The notes below the pieces were generated by a model. That model did not search any database. It was given only the letters and a program-made list of their open reading frames with translations, and was not told the DNA's origin. From assembly GCA_037440465.1 (NCBI GenBank), contig JBBIUB010000001.1:20307-84306 (forward strand): 64,000 bases of DNA, written 5' to 3'. Positions 20,059 through 63,534 of the stretch are shown one piece after another; the stretch's first letter is position 1, and each line of letters starts with the position of its first letter. This DNA is from Coprothermobacterota bacterium (lineage in GTDB: Bacteria; Coprothermobacterota; HKB111). The position numbers and the translations under genes are program-made.

Positions 20059-20901
20059 TCAAATTAAATAGGTAAACCCAACACCTACTGTGCCTGGACC
20101 AACATGAGTACCGACAACCGGTCCAACTTCCCAGATGGGAATTTCACTACTTAAACCAGATAACTTTTCTCTTATTTGATTCGCAACCTCAAATGCTTGA
20201 ACGTGGATCACAGCAAGACGAAACTTACCAGGTGCTTCTTTTATTCCTTTCTTTGTATCATCAACCAAACGATTTATGGCTTTTTCTTTTGTCCTTACCT
20301 TATCGTAAGTCTCTACAACTTTCTTGATTGAGAGGATAGGCTTAAGCTGCAACATAGAACCAATAAGAGCTTGAGCACCACCAATCCTTCCACCTTTGTG
20401 AAGATACTCCAGAGTATCAACCAAAAATAACAATTTTGTATTATCTCTCATATAATCAAGGTGGGCTATAACATCTTCAACAGATAGTCCTTCTTTCAAT
20501 AAATTGTAGGCTTCCTCAACCTGAAATCTGAGGCCACAGGATGTATACCAGGAATCAAAAACATCAATATTCTCACTTGCTAAAATGTTTTTAGCTAACA
20601 AAGCAGATTGAACCGTACCACTTATTCCTGCTGAAATATGAATAGAAAGAATCCTATCCACACCCTGAGATAAAAGTTCTTTGTAAGTAATTTCGAATTC
20701 TCCTGCTGAAGGCTGAGAAGTTGTTGGTAATATTTTGGTAGTCTTTAACGAGGCAAAATATTCTTTCCAGTCTAACTCATCCTCGTTCACACTCTTACCA
20801 TCCGGGAATATTATTTTTAAAGGGATAACTTTCAGATTTAACTCTTTAATCTCCTGGGGTGTAAAATAACTTGTACCATCTGTAACCAAGCCAACTTTCA
20901 T
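20059..20901 (-). CDS. DegV-family fatty-acid-binding protein
   Basis: The N-terminus MKVGLVTDGTSYFTPQEIKELNLKVIPL matches the DegV family. It is 280 aa. Confidence 0.85.
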   Translation of the reverse strand: MKVGLVTDGTSYFTPQEIKELNLKVIPLKIIFPDGKSVNEDELDWKEYFASLKTTKILPTTSQPSAGEFEITYKELLSQGVDRILSIHISAGISGTVQSALLAKNILASENIDVFDSWYTSCGLRFQVEEAYNLLKEGLSVEDVIAHLDYMRDNTKLLFLVDTLEYLHKGGRIGGAQALIGSMLQLKPILSIKKVVETYDKVRTKEKAINRLVDDTKKGIKEAPGKFRLAVIHVQAFEVANQIREKLSGLSSEIPIWEVGPVVGTHVGPGTVGVGFTYLI

Positions 20902-52408: not shown

Positions 52409-53752
52409 ATGAAAGTCCAGGATTATATCAAAAGATTATTTTACGACTCCGAAATCGTAGAAAAGGATCCAGAGTGGGAAGTAATAAAATCTCAGGATAA
52501 TATCAGAACAACATACCTTACAATGCTCTGGAATAGTAGGGTTCCTTACTCCAATGCACCAGAATCTCTGGTAGCCAGTTCCATACAGTCTTTAGAAAAT
52601 CAAGGGTTTGATATGGCTAGAAGGGAAAAGCTGTTTAAAGAAGGGTTAAAAGCATTGGAAGAAAAGGATGTAAAAAAGCTGGAACTATTTACTCCTAAAA
52701 TATTTTCCACCAATTATTTAAGGAGAATAAAAAATCATCCTTACCTGAAATTTTCACGACCTTCAAGCTTTGAGGAAGTATCTAAGGATTTCCCTATTAT
52801 AAGTAAAGAAAAAATCAAATCCAGAGAAAGGGTCTATGGGGGCTTACTCGGAAGCATTATTGGTGGAGCTTATGGTACTCCCATAGAGGGTTATACATAC
52901 TGGCAACTGGAAAAAAGATATGATAAATTTGACTACTATTTAAGACCTGTGAACACAATCAATGATGATATATGCTTTCAAATAGTCTTTCTATTAAAAT
53001 ACCTTAAAAAGGGTGATAAAATAACCTCTCGAGATGTAGCATATGGCTGGTTAAAATATATACCTTTTGGATGGTCAGCGGAGTTAATAGCGCTGGAGAA
53101 TTTAAGAAGAGGCATCTTTCCACCTCAATCTGCAACACTCAATAATCCATTTGGCGAATGGATAGGTGCAGCCATGCGTGGAACTATGCCAGGTCTTATC
53201 TCCGCAGGTGACCCAAATAAAGCAGTTAGGTTGGCCTACACGGATGCTACTGTATCCCATTATCTTAATGGTGTATATGGAGAGATGTTTATATCAGCAC
53301 TGACTTCTCTAGCTTTTATCTGTAATAATATTGAGGAAATAATTAACACTGGTAAAAAATTTGTACCGCATAATACTGAGCTATACTCGGTTATTGATGA
53401 AATTTTAAGTGAAATAAATAGGGATAGGAATTTTTTCAGACTGAGAGATTACATATACAGAAGATTTCAGGATTACAACTGGATTCATCTTTATCCTAAT
53501 ATAGCAGTGGTTTTAGTATCTCTTTTATTGGGAAAAGAAGATTTTCAAAAAACCTTAGAAATGATTGGCAAGTCAGGTTTTGATGTAGATTGCAATGGTG
53601 GTATGGCATTGAGTATCCTGGGCGTTTTAAATCCAGAAAGTATTCCACAAGCTTTAATAAAACCAATTACCAACAAGATAAATACTTACCTGAGAGGTAT
53701 GGAAGAGATACAGGTAGATTACCTTGTAGATGAGATTATGAAAGCACAATAA
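52409..53752 (+). CDS. ADP-ribosylglycohydrolase (ARH/DraG) family protein with an approximately 130-aa N-terminal extension
   Basis: The ARH-domain onset is RERVYGGLLGSIIGGAYGTPIEG. Later Asp-rich metal-binding segments are present (GFDVDCNGG). Confidence 0.7.
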   Translation: MKVQDYIKRLFYDSEIVEKDPEWEVIKSQDNIRTTYLTMLWNSRVPYSNAPESLVASSIQSLENQGFDMARREKLFKEGLKALEEKDVKKLELFTPKIFSTNYLRRIKNHPYLKFSRPSSFEEVSKDFPIISKEKIKSRERVYGGLLGSIIGGAYGTPIEGYTYWQLEKRYDKFDYYLRPVNTINDDICFQIVFLLKYLKKGDKITSRDVAYGWLKYIPFGWSAELIALENLRRGIFPPQSATLNNPFGEWIGAAMRGTMPGLISAGDPNKAVRLAYTDATVSHYLNGVYGEMFISALTSLAFICNNIEEIINTGKKFVPHNTELYSVIDEILSEINRDRNFFRLRDYIYRRFQDYNWIHLYPNIAVVLVSLLLGKEDFQKTLEMIGKSGFDVDCNGGMALSILGVLNPESIPQALIKPITNKINTYLRGMEEIQVDYLVDEIMKAQ

Positions 53753-53764
53753 CATGAGTTACTT

Positions 53765-54424
53765 ATGACAGTTAGCGAAAACAGAAAAAACCTGATCTGG
53801 ATATATAATCAACTTTACCAATTCTTTGGTCCCCAGCACTGGTGGCCAGCAAGAACTCCTTTTGAAGTAATGATAGGTGCGATACTAACTCAGAACACTT
53901 CCTGGTTAAATGTTGAGAAGGCAATAAATAACCTTAAAAGGGATAACTTATTGGAGATAGAAAAGATAAAACATCTAAATACTGACAAACTGGCTTCAAT
54001 AATCAAACCTGCTGGTTATTATAATATTAAAGCCAGAAGAATTAAAAACCTTGTAAAATTATTATGTTCAATATACTCAAGTGATTTTGATAAGATGTCT
54101 GACCTAGACCTTTCAAAACTAAGGACAGAACTCCTTTCTATAAATGGGATAGGACCCGAAACGGCAGACTCAATACTTCTTTATGCTCTTAATAAACCTG
54201 TATTTGTGATTGATGCTTACACCAGAAGGGTATTAGCCCGACACAATATTTTAGATGAAGAAGCTACTTATGAATGTTTTCAAATCTATTTCATGAACAA
54301 CCTTCCTCATGACATAAGGCTCTTTAAAGAATTTCATGCCTTACTGGTTCAACTTGGAAAAAACATCTGCAGGAAGGTTCCTGCTTGTGATGTCTGTCCA
54401 CTTAAAACCCTGAAAAACATATGA
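53765..54424 (+). CDS. HhH-GPD (endonuclease III-like) DNA glycosylase family protein
   Basis: It has a helix-hairpin-helix region (LLSINGIGPETADSILLYAL) followed by a catalytic Asp, and a C-terminal Cys cluster C-x6-C-x2-C in which only 3 Cys are visible. Confidence 0.7.
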   Translation: MTVSENRKNLIWIYNQLYQFFGPQHWWPARTPFEVMIGAILTQNTSWLNVEKAINNLKRDNLLEIEKIKHLNTDKLASIIKPAGYYNIKARRIKNLVKLLCSIYSSDFDKMSDLDLSKLRTELLSINGIGPETADSILLYALNKPVFVIDAYTRRVLARHNILDEEATYECFQIYFMNNLPHDIRLFKEFHALLVQLGKNICRKVPACDVCPLKTLKNI

Positions 54425-54457
54425 TAGTGGTAAAATTCTAACTGGTAGGGATAGTCA

Positions 54458-55045
54458 ATGATCCATAATATGAAGAAAAACAGTAATAAGAAAATAAATA
54501 ACCTGTCGGTTTTTGATAAAAACTTTAAAGAAATACTAACTTCACAACTGGTTTCTATATCAGGTGGACTCATAGCAGGAATCGTTCTCGCTGTATACAC
54601 TGATAAGATTTTCCTTATACCAGGAATGCTTATTCTACTTCCAGGATTTCTGGAAATGCGTGGAAATATTAGTGGCTCTCTTGCCTCAAGAATAAGCTCC
54701 GGTTTATTCTTAGGGGTGATTAAAACAGACAAGATCAATACCCCACTGATTAGAGGTAATATCCTAGCTTCCTTCCTGCTGGCTGTACTGGTATCCTTTG
54801 CTCTCGGTACTGTAACTTTTCTGTTAAATTTTTTGGCCTTTCGAATATTCACTCCGGAAATCATAATCATAGCTATTATTGCTGGATGTCTCGCTAATCT
54901 TGTGGAAATCCCTCTTACCCTTTTAACCACTCTCTACATCTTCAAGAAAGGGTACGATCCTAATAACATAATGGGTCCTTTTGTAACATCTACAGGAGAT
55001 ATAATCAGCATACTATCTCTCCTGATTGCGTTGGTGATAGTATGA
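54458..55045 (+). CDS. MgtE-type transmembrane domain protein (half 1 of a split SLC41/MgtE-like divalent cation transporter)
   Basis: It has 5 predicted TM helices and the motif LLPGFLEMRGNISGSLASRIS, which is typical of MgtE TM domains. It lacks the MgtE_N and CBS domains. Confidence 0.5.
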   Translation: MIHNMKKNSNKKINNLSVFDKNFKEILTSQLVSISGGLIAGIVLAVYTDKIFLIPGMLILLPGFLEMRGNISGSLASRISSGLFLGVIKTDKINTPLIRGNILASFLLAVLVSFALGTVTFLLNFLAFRIFTPEIIIIAIIAGCLANLVEIPLTLLTTLYIFKKGYDPNNIMGPFVTSTGDIISILSLLIALVIV

Positions 55046-55737
55046 AAAAGGTTACTGAACACCTTGAAAAGCTGAAAGGAACACCAAGGAAAAAACATCA
55101 TTCTCTAATAGATGAGATTCATACTGAACATAGGATTTCCAAGAAGACCCTCTTTTATATAAAAGAATATGGACCAAAATCCAATGTTCCCAGAACCATC
55201 ATCAGGGAAAGCGTCCTTATACTTCTACTGGCTTCGGCGGTTAGTTCTCTGGGAGGCTTCGCACTGGAAAGAATAAAAGTCACTTTTATCTCCCTCATGC
55301 CTTTAGTAGTCTTGTTACCTGCCTTAAATGACATGATAGGAGATTACGGAGTAATAGTATCTTCCAGGGTTTCTACTATGCTACACCAGGGTAAAATGAG
55401 GAAAAACTGGTGGTTGGATAAAGAGTTAAGGAAATTATTTCTTCAGATTTTGATTATTGCACTAATTACTACTGTTTTAAGTGTTCTTGTGGCCTTTTTT
55501 GCTTCCAAGTTTTCAGGTTATTCCACCAGCATATACACTACACTTAAGATTTTCTTTATAGCAATCCTTGATGTCTTGATAATTGTAAACATTTTATTTT
55601 TCACAAGTCTTAAAGCTGGATGGTATTTATATAAAAAGGAAGAGGATCCTAATAACTTTCTTATTCCTATTACCACCTCTATAGCAGATTTTGGTAATAT
55701 GGTTCTTTTATGGGTTCTGGTAAGACTGCTTTTTTAA
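55042..55737 (+). CDS. MgtE-type transmembrane domain protein (half 2)
   Basis: Its start overlaps the previous stop by 4 nt. It carries the paralogous motif LLPALNDMIGDYGVIVSSRVS and has 5 TM helices. Confidence 0.5.
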   Translation: MKKVTEHLEKLKGTPRKKHHSLIDEIHTEHRISKKTLFYIKEYGPKSNVPRTIIRESVLILLLASAVSSLGGFALERIKVTFISLMPLVVLLPALNDMIGDYGVIVSSRVSTMLHQGKMRKNWWLDKELRKLFLQILIIALITTVLSVLVAFFASKFSGYSTSIYTTLKIFFIAILDVLIIVNILFFTSLKAGWYLYKKEEDPNNFLIPITTSIADFGNMVLLWVLVRLLF

Positions 55738-58363: not shown

Positions 58364-58868
58364 GTATTATCCTCCGCTTATTATTCTACCAGATAAAGTA
58401 ATTTCCCCTGAATTCTTCAACCAAATAAGGCATTTGCTAAATAACTATAACTATAAGAGAGGTTAGCAAAGTTAATAAGATTATAACTATATATGAATTA
58501 TGCACTCTTTCTTGCTAATGAAAAGAAGTAATCTTCAATCAATTTATCAATTCTTCTTTGGTAATAGAGGAAGTGTCTTTTCCAGGTTCAGGGTAGTAAC
58601 TATATTTCTGGCAATAAGCTTCACTTCTCGTTTGCTCAATTGGTATTTTCCAGGCATAATCAGGAGTAAGAAAATATCCACAACAGAACCAACCAGAACA
58701 ATAAAGTTAAAAAAGAGCCACCGTAAAAGTAATTAAAGCCACAGTATAGAGATAGACTTTTGGAACGGTCCAGTTACTCAATTGTATCCTCCAAAATATT
58801 TCTATTTTTTGTTCTTTATTATTACTAAAAGAATGGTAATATTAACAATTGAAAGGAGAAAGCTCAAA

Positions 58869-59666
58869 ATGCTGGAAATATCTTCAGAGAGTATTGATAT
58901 CTTAAGATTTGTTAAAGACTATCATTTTTCTAAAATAACCCTGGATATAGAAACCCTTGACACAAGCAAACCAGCTATGTGGGATGAACCTATGGTTTCC
59001 TTTGCCATCTCTTTCATTCCGGATAATCTTATTCCTTTAGTAGTAGATATGCCTACTTTTGCATGGTGCATAGAAGATACTGAAGAAGAGGGGAAACTTT
59101 TATTAAGGTTAAAAGAAATATTTAATTATCTTAAAATAAGCACTCTCATAATCGGTCATAATGTAGCTTATGAACTTCAATGTAAGAAGTTAGAAGAATG
59201 GAATAATAAAACAGGATATGATATCCCTAAGATTATAAAAAGAGGAAAGGTTTGGGGACTTGACTTTAATTTTATAAAAGAATTCCCAACATATGATACT
59301 ATTGATGTAGCTTATTTCAAACTTAATCATATAGAACATGGAATATTTGGGAATTATGGTCTAAAAAAAATATTGAAAAGTGAAGAATTAGAATCGTTTT
59401 TTAAAATTAAACGACCTTCAGGCTTACCAAAATTAGGGCCTGCTGTTAGTGAATACTTTAAAGATGGAAGATACAAGGAGATAATTCTATATAACTGCTC
59501 TGATGTCATTGTCCAATCCCTTTTTTATCGTTTTATGGAACATAAATTAACTGTTTGTCCGGAAAAAAATGGATTGATTTCAATTAAAAAAAACTGTGAA
59601 CATATTCCCATTATTATTAAATTAGATGAAATTGAGACCTGGAAAAGTCTTATTAAGGAGGTTTAA
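58869..59666 (+). CDS. Predicted 3'-5' exonuclease of the DEDD/RNase H-like superfamily (related to the PolB exonuclease domain)
   Basis: Exo I is LDIETLD, Exo II is IGHNVAYEL and Exo III is YNCSDV. I took the start at ATG 58869 behind an AAAGGAGAAAG RBS. The upstream 29 codons of the ORF-track call are AT-rich read-through. Confidence 0.6.
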   Translation: MLEISSESIDILRFVKDYHFSKITLDIETLDTSKPAMWDEPMVSFAISFIPDNLIPLVVDMPTFAWCIEDTEEEGKLLLRLKEIFNYLKISTLIIGHNVAYELQCKKLEEWNNKTGYDIPKIIKRGKVWGLDFNFIKEFPTYDTIDVAYFKLNHIEHGIFGNYGLKKILKSEELESFFKIKRPSGLPKLGPAVSEYFKDGRYKEIILYNCSDVIVQSLFYRFMEHKLTVCPEKNGLISIKKNCEHIPIIIKLDEIETWKSLIKEV

Positions 59667-60410
59667 ATGAAGGCTATTATTGCTCTAAAACCTGAGGATA
59701 GTAAAAGACTTATCGCCAGAGGAGTGGTTTCTCTTCCTGAAGTTCATCAGGCTTTGGAAAAAGGTATTATCCACATTGCCCGTGGTACAACCTGTGCTTA
59801 CGTCTTTGAAGAACTTACAGGAAGAAAAATTGATATTAATAAATATGTTGCAGGTTATATCGGAAATGGTGGACTAAGAGTTCTGCCAGCAAATGAGAGG
59901 TTAAAACCTTTTACCTTGAAAAAGGGGGAAGTACTGGAGATTGAACCAAACGAAGTGCTATCTGAGATGGGTTATGGTGATGTTTTTATTAAAGGAGGTA
60001 ATGCTCTTGACTTTGAAGGAAGAGTTGGTGTTTTGTGTGCGAACAGAGAAGGTGGAACTATTGGAGGAGCAATAGGTACAATAACCGCTCGGGGTATCCA
60101 CCTTATTATGCCTATAAGCCTTAGAAAGCTGGTTCCCAACATACCTAAGGGTGCAAATCTTGGTGGTATTGATGAGTGTGACTACACTATGGGAGAAAAA
60201 GTAGCCTTATTCCCTGTTATCAATGGCAAAGTAATAACAGAGATTGATGCCTTCAAGCATCTATTTGACGTAGAAGCTACTCTTATAGCACAGGGTGGTC
60301 TGGGAGATATGGAAGGAGCTTTAATATTTGGATTAGTTGGAGAAAAAAATCAAGTCAACAGAGTCATTGAAAACCTTTGTCTTCCAAAAATCTATCATGG
60401 ACAAACTTAA
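59667..60410 (+). CDS. Conserved hypothetical protein (Gly-rich, 247 aa)
   Basis: Its ATG directly follows the exonuclease TAA. It is Gly-rich (YIGNGGLRV, REGGTIGGAIGTITARG, AQGGLGDMEG), and I recognise no family. Confidence 0.5.
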   Translation: MKAIIALKPEDSKRLIARGVVSLPEVHQALEKGIIHIARGTTCAYVFEELTGRKIDINKYVAGYIGNGGLRVLPANERLKPFTLKKGEVLEIEPNEVLSEMGYGDVFIKGGNALDFEGRVGVLCANREGGTIGGAIGTITARGIHLIMPISLRKLVPNIPKGANLGGIDECDYTMGEKVALFPVINGKVITEIDAFKHLFDVEATLIAQGGLGDMEGALIFGLVGEKNQVNRVIENLCLPKIYHGQT

Positions 60411-61173
60411 TCTTTCTGAAAAAGTAGTTGTTATAACGGGTGTTTCTTCAGGTCTTGGGAAAGAACTATTGCGTGTTTTTCTTGAGAACAAGACTAAAGT
60501 AGCAGGTATTGTAAGGAGAGAAGAAAGCTTAGCTATCCTATCAGAAGAATCCAGAGGGTACAAGATAAAACCTCTATTACTTCATGGTGACATTAGCAAT
60601 CCTGGGAAGATTAAAAATATGGTTGAGAAAGTGGTAGATTACTTTGGAGGTATTAATATCCTTATCAATAACTCAGCAATTAATTTTCCGAGTCCGGCTA
60701 TGAAATATACTATCCATGAATGGAAAGAGACATTGAATGTAAATCTCACTGCACCATTCTTACTTGCTCGCGAGTCATATGAATATATGAAAAAAAGAGG
60801 TGGTGGTTTAATTATTAATATTACCTCTGTAGAAGGAATTCTTCCTACAAATAATCCCCCTTCTATCGCTTATAGTGTTTCCAAAGCTGGATTAATTCAA
60901 CTTACTAGAGCTCTAGCAATAGAGTGGGGAAAAGATAATATAAGAGTTATTGCTGTAGCGCCAGGACCTTTCCCTTCTTTGATGACAGAAGAATTTTTCA
61001 ATGATGAACAATTTTCTCAACTAAAGGAAAATTGGCTTAAGAAAATACCTTTAGGAAGGACAACTACTACCTATGAGATAGCACAGTCTATTGTAGCCTT
61101 AGCCACTCCTGCCTTCAGTTATGCCACAGGAACAGTTTTCGTTCTTGATGGTGGATTAACGGCAGGATTGTAA
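60397..61173 (+). CDS. SDR-family oxidoreductase
   Basis: TGVSSGLGKEL is the TGxxxGxG motif, NNSAI is present, and the catalytic YSVSK is a YxxxK. I took the start at the internal ATG, which overlaps the upstream gene by 14 nt. Confidence 0.8.
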   Translation: MDKLNLSEKVVVITGVSSGLGKELLRVFLENKTKVAGIVRREESLAILSEESRGYKIKPLLLHGDISNPGKIKNMVEKVVDYFGGINILINNSAINFPSPAMKYTIHEWKETLNVNLTAPFLLARESYEYMKKRGGGLIINITSVEGILPTNNPPSIAYSVSKAGLIQLTRALAIEWGKDNIRVIAVAPGPFPSLMTEEFFNDEQFSQLKENWLKKIPLGRTTTTYEIAQSIVALATPAFSYATGTVFVLDGGLTAGL

Positions 61174-62661: not shown

Positions 62662-63534
62662 ATGATTTTGATTGGAGAGAACATCCATATCCTGTCAAAG
62701 GCTGTATCAGATGCCATAAAAGAAAAGAATACCAAGTATTTGCAGGATTTGGCTGTTAAACAGGCAGAAGCAGGTGTAGATTACATTGACTTAAATATTG
62801 GGCCAGCTCGAAAAGATCCTGAAATAATGCTCTGGATTGTAGAATCTATTCAAGAGGTTGTAAACCTGCCATTATCCCTGGATACTACTAACCCTAAAGC
62901 CATGGAAGCAGGACTTTCAGTATGTAAAATTAAGCCATTGATTAACTCTGCTTCAGGTAAGGAAGAAAGTAAATTGGAAATGCTTCCTTTAGCCCAAAAG
63001 TACAACTGTGATGTTATAGTATCTGTATTGACAGATAGAGGAATACCCACTGATGCTACCTCCAGAGCTGAGGCTATTATGGAAACAGTAGCTTATGCTA
63101 ATGAGCTTGGTATTCCAAATGAAAACATCTGGGTAGACCCCATAATGATGCCTATCTCAGTAGACCAGCAGCAAGTAGTAGAACTAATAGAGTTCATGCA
63201 GATGTTACCTGAAATTGCACCTGGGATAAAATCTTCTATTGGTCTATCAAATCTATCTAATGGTACGCCACATCATTTAAGGGCAATCCTTAATAGGATT
63301 GAGCTTATAATTCTTCAGAGATACGGTCTCTACTCTTCTATCGTGGACAGTTTTGACCATGAGCTGGTTGATTTAATGAAAGGTAGGTTACCTAAAATAG
63401 TTGACATTATCTACAAAACTATGGATGACGAAATAGACCTTTCCAGTCTCAGTATAAATGAATTAAATATAGCAAAAACAGTCAATGTTCTGATGGGAAA
63501 GACTCTATATTCCCACTCCTGGCTGGAAATCTAA
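62662..63534 (+). CDS. acsE: Methyltetrahydrofolate:corrinoid/iron-sulfur protein methyltransferase (pterin-binding, MeTr)
   Basis: It is co-linear with Moorella AcsE: MILIGENIH vs MLIIGERIN; DLNIGPA vs DLNVGPA; SLDTTNPKAMEAGL vs CLDSTNIKAIEAGL; LINSASG vs MINSTNA; IGLSNLSNG vs LGLSNVSQN. A strong RBS (AAGGAGG) is upstream. Confidence 0.8.
   Translation: MILIGENIHILSKAVSDAIKEKNTKYLQDLAVKQAEAGVDYIDLNIGPARKDPEIMLWIVESIQEVVNLPLSLDTTNPKAMEAGLSVCKIKPLINSASGKEESKLEMLPLAQKYNCDVIVSVLTDRGIPTDATSRAEAIMETVAYANELGIPNENIWVDPIMMPISVDQQQVVELIEFMQMLPEIAPGIKSSIGLSNLSNGTPHHLRAILNRIELIILQRYGLYSSIVDSFDHELVDLMKGRLPKIVDIIYKTMDDEIDLSSLSINELNIAKTVNVLMGKTLYSHSWLEI

Follow-up and report, generated by a model that had tools for sequence, protein, structure and literature searches.

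Three tightly packed genes for an exonuclease-like protein, a glycine-rich protein and a short-chain dehydrogenase in a Coprothermobacterota genome are probably a lineage-specific accretion

When three bacterial genes touch or overlap one another and encode an exonuclease-like protein, a glycine-rich protein and an oxidoreductase, do they form one functional system? The question is raised by a locus on contig JBBIUB010000001.1 of a Coprothermobacterota bacterium (GTDB lineage HKB111; GCA_037440465.1), of which we analyzed a stretch of 64,000 nucleotides (positions 20,307 to 84,306; hereafter the window). An earlier interpretation made from the letters alone (hereafter the sequence-only reading) described the three genes as a translationally coupled operon and proposed a nucleotide-modifying, repair or defence module. 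Our comparisons point to a different answer. With a probability of roughly three in four, three genes without a functional relationship accreted here within one lineage, and the locus is not a conserved system; the three are a gene for a protein resembling the exonuclease of PolB polymerases (gene 1), a member of a large unannotated family (gene 2) and a gene of the short-chain dehydrogenase/reductase (SDR) superfamily (gene 3).

The geometry itself is as the sequence-only reading had described it, and the boundaries of all three open reading frames (ORFs; Table 1) agree with those of an independent gene call, taken from the public assembly of this contig. The TAA of gene 1 (59664–59666) is contiguous with the ATG of gene 2 (59667), which leaves a junction of 0 nt (...AAGGAGGTTTAAATG). 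The ATG of gene 3 (60397) lies 14 nt within gene 2 with no obvious Shine-Dalgarno (SD)-like sequence before it, and no terminator-like site was found on the plus strand between the three genes. With junctions of 0 nt and −14 nt, transcription as one unit and translational coupling are probable for the present-day genes. They are flanked by purA and purB upstream and by serS downstream, all on the minus strand.

Gene orders in relatives indicate how this arrangement may have come about. The closest relative (locus L006; gene 2 identity 67%) is collinear with the window over ~13 kb and carries, in order, purA, purB, a phosphoribosyltransferase gene (Pribosyltran), a membrane-protein gene on the minus strand, an AT-rich spacer (212 bp), gene 2, the SDR gene that overlaps it, and serS, with no exonuclease gene. 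The overlap of gene 2 with the SDR gene is 20 nt in L006 and 14 nt in the window. No SDR gene is present in two outgroups. Specifically, Candidatus Psychracetigena formicireducens (L007; phylum Lithacetigenota; gene 2 identity 59%) has Pribosyltran, cysE-like, cysK-like, Rrf2 (minus), gene 2, serS (minus) and cdhD-like genes, and L095 (61%) has a 126-aa membrane-protein gene (minus), gene 2 (plus) and serS (minus). Compared with L006, the window has lost the Pribosyltran gene, its membrane-protein gene has decayed to a pseudogene, and the spacer has been swapped for a segment that carries the exonuclease gene. In a blastn comparison between the two, synteny stops at window position 58801 and restarts at 59665, and L006 has an AT-rich spacer of ~190 bp with an SD sequence (L006 7809–7998) in place of the exonuclease segment. 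No direct or inverted repeats beyond chance flank this segment and no mobile-element genes were found. The lost phosphoribosyltransferase gene (PF00156) stands beside purB in L006 (6876–7397) and is also found on the L007 contig (543–1076); it is absent at the corresponding window position (~58364–58497), where tblastn found no remnant.

The region upstream of gene 1 had been taken for the 500-bp AT-rich leader of an operon that lies between purAB and serS. Its position and composition were confirmed (505 bp, 31% GC), but most of it is a pseudogene on the minus strand. The intact membrane-protein gene of L006 matched it in tblastn with 54% identity over 83 residues and two in-frame stops, the C-terminus lying in another frame; the gene is also intact in L095, where it adjoins gene 2. 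A riboswitch or other RNA in this region was considered and rejected, as Rfam at E <= 1 returned only a chance snoRNA-like match within purB. The counts of promoter-like and terminator-like sites were not above shuffled expectation.

Taken together, these gene orders suggest that gene 2 ancestrally stood between the membrane-protein gene and serS. Gene 2 would be an old resident of the locus, convergent to serS in a Lithacetigenota-like lineage, and a generic SDR gene would have entered the space between it and serS before the window and L006 diverged from their common ancestor; in this sub-lineage, gene 2 and the SDR gene may form a two-gene metabolic pair. The rare, stand-alone exonuclease gene would have been gained last and by this genome only, probably through horizontal transfer, landing in the AT-rich promoter spacer immediately upstream of gene 2 and beside the now-decayed membrane-protein gene. 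The probable present-day coupling of the three genes looks like a by-product of this insertion into the promoter spacer of gene 2 and of genome compaction, and is not in itself evidence of a shared pathway.

This interpretation was compared with the neighborhoods of homologues in other genomes. A conserved multi-gene system is recognized by recurrent co-localization in unrelated genomes, and we found none for this trio, which never occurred together elsewhere among the loci examined. On the exonuclease side (L002, L003/L004, L087, L088, L089, L090/L091, L098–L101 and the weak viral-contig locus L096), tblastn detected homologues of gene 2 or of the SDR gene at 0 of 12 loci. The neighbors of the exonuclease homologues differ by locus: restriction-modification genes (type II/III) clustered with those for an integrase and a Tag glycosylase in one setting, and NrdD, a PAS sensor that also has a response-regulator domain, or LarB/LarC/LarE-like proteins in others. 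On the gene 2 side, 80 genome loci were surveyed together with L005 and L006, and the window and L006 are the only ones in which an SDR related to gene 3 adjoins gene 2; an SDR that looks unrelated lies 2–5 kb away at three further loci. Neighbor clustering around the 80 loci revealed no family common beyond close lineages. The commonest Pfam families among 69 same-strand neighbors within 150 bp were TrmD, Ku, FAD oxidase and sigma-70 (three times each), and adh_short was not found among the recurrent ones. A conserved partner for gene 2 was rejected on the basis of this clustering and Pfam scan. Gene 2 is normally a stand-alone gene across bacteria and archaea.

Some observations weigh against an accretion of unrelated genes. 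A perfect SD sequence within the upstream gene, a 14-nt overlap and a plus strand with no terminator-like site between the genes are the geometry of a true operon, and the overlap between gene 2 and the SDR gene is kept in L006, the sole close relative available. The exonuclease family was represented by just ~12 loci, many of them on short contigs, and it is two outgroups (L007 and L095), together with GC content, that decide between a gain of the exonuclease here and its loss from L006. It is also conceivable that a functional link between the three genes evolved recently in this single lineage.

With regard to gene 3, its earlier assignment as an SDR holds. It matches PF13561 (adh_short_C2; 171.6 bits, cut-off 27) and PF00106 (adh_short; 153.6 bits, cut-off 26.6) over its full length, and the translation contains TGVSSGLG, corresponding to the TGxxxGxG cofactor loop, and YSVSK, corresponding to the catalytic YxxxK. 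Gene 3 is a classical SDR and is probably NADP(H)-dependent. All 25 NCBIfam models listed for it score under their curated cut-offs (the best, gluconate 5-dehydrogenase, 186.3 vs. 279; FabG, 166 vs. 297.75), so that its substrate is not assignable.

Gene 2 is the glycine-rich protein that had been described (13.4% Gly), with no match in Pfam, NCBIfam, PHROG or PADLOC and no significant match among PDB sequences. A word-seeded search retrieved relatives in 91 clusters, and an exhaustive profile search with a limit of E <= 1e-3 extended the family to 1352 cluster representatives (clustering at 50% identity), of which 955 reach E <= 1e-10. The family occurs at no fewer than 581 species-level genome loci in Bacillota, Chloroflexota, Actinomycetota, Lithacetigenota/WS2, Asgard archaea, Hadarchaeota, Hydrothermarchaeota and others, and all names given to its members in the sources examined are "hypothetical" or "uncharacterized". 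Gene 2 has a NagB/RpiA/CoA-transferase-like fold, which is shared with RpiA and the eIF2B-like phospho-sugar isomerases. By the terms of the sequence-only reading, its refutation would need both a trio never found together in other genomes and a middle protein from a common metabolic family. The first is what the surveyed loci show; the second is half true, as the fold of the protein is a common one in metabolism but its family has no name. An identification of gene 2 as RpiA itself was rejected, because the family profile, when aligned by hhalign with E. coli RpiA (NC_000913.3), reached a probability of 0.3%.

Conserved positions in the gene 2 family comprise the invariant I16, G40, T42, E49, G63, G87, D105, N112, A113, G130, P149, K154, E192, A195, G211 and G225 and the nearly invariant K13, R14, K109, G110, G129 and T131. 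Several of these residues lie in Gly/Thr loops that precede helices 41–51 and 130–142 or follow strand 106–108, and the conserved loops at helix N-termini are G40-x-T42, K109-G-G-N-A and G129-G-T131. Such loops at helix starts are the usual arrangement for binding phosphate or other anions. They would explain the glycine-richness of the protein and, together with the fold, suggest that the product of gene 2 may recognize a small anionic ligand (probably phosphorylated and sugar-like), either as an enzyme, for instance an isomerase, or as a binding protein; our confidence in this role is low to moderate.

Several observations concern gene 2 homologues elsewhere. Among 150 listed representatives, the gene 2 domain is fused to an N-terminal nitroreductase (P0238, 486 aa) and to Clp_N repeats (P0235, 405 aa); each is a single representative, and as evidence for a partner these fusions are uninformative. 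In L093 the gene 2 homologue has a nitroreductase gene 1.5 kb downstream, and there, as in L005, the homologue is flanked by EamA transporter genes. In six Hadarchaeota loci (L051, L058, L071, L072, L076, L081) the homologue stands amid housekeeping-looking genes (ribosomal protein S8e-like, Gar1-like, TFB-like; identities assigned by eye).

The features of genes 2 and 3 bear on the alternative that survives best, in which the two form a genuine metabolic module of the sub-lineage and the exonuclease is a hitch-hiker. For example, a phospho-sugar or sugar-acid isomerase-like or binding protein could feed an NADP(H)-dependent dehydrogenase, and this would be compatible with the late arrival of the exonuclease proposed above. 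In addition to the overlap kept in L006, the start of the SDR gene has no SD sequence of its own, which implies coupling to gene 2. Gene 2 has a phospho-sugar isomerase-like fold, the models closest to the SDR are gluconate 5-dehydrogenase, glucose dehydrogenase and FabG, and the nitroreductase fusion found elsewhere hints at a redox partner. Nonetheless, the pair is found at just 2 of ~82 loci and the SDR is missing from both outgroups, adh_short is no recurrent neighbor, and the window and L006 are close kin, in which the overlap may be simply inherited. We therefore regard a two-gene module as possible but doubtful.

Gene 1 contains the motif strings on which the sequence-only reading had relied, namely DIETLD (26–31), GHNVAYE (96–102) and YNCSD (208–212), and two of the three motifs are upheld by conservation. 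Across 22 family members, D26 and E28 of Exo I (DxE) are invariant and align with the DIET of PolB, and Y208, N209 and D212 of Exo III (Yx3D) are likewise invariant, which assigns gene 1 to the DEDDy type. The third motif had been read as intact, and this needs refining. N98 of Exo II is invariant and H97 nearly so, but the canonical acid position, held by E102 here, is variable, with M, Q, K, S or R also occurring in the family. D118 is conserved in 21 of the 22 members within G-Y-D-[ILVF]-P-K-I (GYDIPKI here), at the beginning of a long model helix (118–128). Given that E102 varies and D118 is conserved, D118 is likelier to be the catalytic acid, in an Exo II motif that would be split by an insertion of 13–18 residues. 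With its RNase-H-like exonuclease fold of the DEDD superfamily, gene 1 is predicted to encode a metal-dependent 3'–5' exonuclease.

The family to which gene 1 belongs is rare. The protein has no match in Pfam, NCBIfam, PHROGs, PADLOC or PDB sequences; a single-sequence search yielded 10 homologues and a profile search in a 5.8-billion-protein database 22 clusters. PF13482 (RNase_H_2) does not match gene 1 itself at E <= 1 but does match distant homologues (33–39% identity; P0105 with 27.4 bits against a gathering threshold of 22), so that membership of gene 1 in PF13482 would be through transitive homology only. PF13482 adjoins the PolB exonuclease clusters, and its activity is merely presumed (Majorek et al. 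2014, PMC3985635). Searches for phage or plasmid relatives of gene 1 found none; there was one weak match to an IMG/VR viral contig, the viral matches being otherwise generic and at fold level. Where the context of an exonuclease homologue can be assigned, it is archaeal, either by markers (NAC, TFIIE-alpha, Trm56, aRF1, archaeal CCA enzyme) or by the label "Thermoplasmata archaeon". In one Thermoplasmata metagenome-assembled genome (L090 2235–3211/L091 1459–2435), two small genes that overlap each other come after the homologue; the second has a weak match to HNH endonucleases (E = 0.002), perhaps a sign that the setting there is mobile or nuclease-related.

An exonuclease that was ancestral at the locus and was then lost in L006, L007 and L095 would also account for the distribution. 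Mobile-element scars and flanking repeats are absent around gene 1, an intact gene in which all residues invariant in the family are retained. This scenario requires at least two or three independent losses, and it sits poorly with the GC content of gene 1 (0.301), the lowest among the 52 window ORFs of >= 200 aa (mean 0.366, standard deviation 0.025). Relatives with assignable context are archaeal and include no Lithacetigenota, and L006 keeps an intact AT-rich spacer with an SD sequence at the position of the gene. We consider an ancestral exonuclease improbable. Least probable is the trio as a functional, lineage-specific nucleic-acid system for defence, repair or nucleotide modification: the tight, operon-like packing, the restriction-modification, integrase or Tag glycosylase genes beside some exonuclease homologues and an HhH-GPD glycosylase gene 4.4 kb upstream, also window-specific relative to L006, would fit it. 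Yet the neighborhood comparison largely refutes it, as the exonuclease family is never found with gene 2 or the SDR gene at any other locus examined; in addition, no PADLOC defence-system model matches any of the three genes, gene 2 is widespread as a stand-alone gene with housekeeping-looking flanks in Hadarchaeota, and the exonuclease appears to be a recent single-gene insertion.

The accretion of unrelated genes remains our preferred interpretation. As a bolder reading, it can tentatively be suggested, with less confidence than we give the two-gene module, that the gene 2 family represents a novel enzyme type built on the RpiA/eIF2B scaffold (e.g., a non-orthologous phospho-sugar or phospho-metabolite isomerase of anaerobes), that the SDR was perhaps recruited to it here, and that the exonuclease represents a rare archaea-to-bacterium transfer of a stand-alone PolB-exonuclease-like nuclease. 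Nothing at the locus is categorically new, and its interest lies in the unannotated gene 2 family and in the rare, mostly archaeal exonuclease family. If the trio were a nuclease-oxidoreductase system, it would be a candidate for a new defence or nucleotide-modification pathway; the evidence is to the contrary and its pursuit as such appears unwarranted. The gene 2 family is broadly distributed and well folded, has no Pfam or NCBIfam model and has a fold that points to phospho-sugar-like ligands, so that a family entry of its own and ligand screening would be reasonable goals. The exonuclease family, very rare, PolB-exonuclease-like and with what appears to be an unusual split Exo II, is, like the gene 2 family, of modest value. 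The locus also provides a clean example of how an insertion into a promoter spacer can make a seeming "translationally coupled operon" from unrelated genes.

Some further features of the surroundings can be noted. The HhH-GPD DNA-glycosylase gene (window 53765–54424, plus strand) is absent from L006, where 178 bp correspond to window 53659–54510, and it is a second DNA-repair-type gene particular to this genome. The exonuclease homologue of L002 adjoins the Tag glycosylase gene, a parallel that may be coincidence. A nucleoside-salvage cluster (Bmp lipoprotein with ABC transporter, IU_nuc_hydro and PfkB kinase) lies at window ~50.3–52.1 kb (L001 1449–3258), ~6.7 kb upstream of the exonuclease gene and ~7.5 kb from gene 2. 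A PfkB and IU_nuc_hydro pair (L005 10934–12735) is also found 2 kb from the gene 2 homologue of Alkalicella caledoniensis, a weak association that did not recur in the 80-locus survey. Two consecutive short membrane genes with MgtE domains (PF01769; window 54458–55045 and 55042–55737, plus strand), overlapping by 4 nt, resemble a split Mg transporter and are conserved in L006. Beyond the trio, a CdhD/pterin-binding-like gene pair (window 62662–63534 and the next gene; L001 13794–15577) is followed by a Hel308-like helicase with an archaeal-type domain 4, and this gene order is kept in L006 and, in part, in L007.

Table 1 Features of the three-gene locus and its upstream region (window positions).
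Feature	Positions	Strand	Length	Description
Pseudogene of membrane protein	58498–58781	−	~126 aa (intact protein)	Two in-frame stops and a frameshift; bulk of the AT-rich "leader"
Segment absent from L006	58802–59664	+	~860 bp	Contains only gene 1 and its SD sequence AAAGGAG (58852–58858)
Gene 1, exonuclease-like	58869–59666	+	265 aa	Predicted stand-alone DEDDy-type PolB-exonuclease-like 3'–5' exonuclease
SD sequence of gene 2	59655–59661	+		Perfect AAGGAGG inside the final gene 1 codons (direct sequence reading)
Gene 2	59667–60410	+	247 aa	Large unannotated family; RpiA/eIF2B/CoA-transferase-like fold
Gene 3, classical SDR	60397–61173	+	258 aa	14-nt overlap with gene 2

When compared with known systems, gene 3 resembles SDRs of the FabG, gluconate 5-dehydrogenase and glucose 1-dehydrogenase types in its full-length Pfam match and its TGxxxGxG and YxxxK motifs but, unlike these, falls under every specific NCBIfam cut-off. 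The fold relatives of gene 2 are the eIF2B-like isomerases of ribose-1,5-bisphosphate (3a11) and of methylthioribose-1-phosphate (1t9k) and RpiA (1uj4), a resemblance at the level of fold only in which ~60% of the protein superposes; the gene 2 family profile matched none of the RpiA/eIF2B-like PDB sequences searched. The eIF2B-like isomerases use a catalytic Cys/Asp pair and RpiA a catalytic Asp/Glu/Lys set. Unlike the former, gene 2 has no invariant Cys in its family alignment, and its D105, K109, K154 and E192 have no reliable alignment by which to map them onto the catalytic residues of either group.

The nearest polymerase relatives of gene 1 are the exonuclease domains of archaeal and eukaryotic family-B DNA polymerases (PDB 5mdn, 4flt, 4m8o), from which it differs in having no polymerase domain and with which it shares 14–18% identity, the profile E-values against PDB sequences (0.55–0.9) being not significant. 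A second comparison is with PF13482/COG3359, predicted 3'–5' exonucleases related to the PolB exonuclease domain. Like these, the gene 1 family has an RNase-H-like DEDD fold, invariant DxE and Yx3D motifs and no experimentally characterized member. Unlike these, the gene 1 protein has a C-terminal extension of ~50 residues and what appears to be an insertion of 13–18 residues that separates the HN part of Exo II from the YD part, and its family is tiny (22 clusters) with mostly archaeal contexts.

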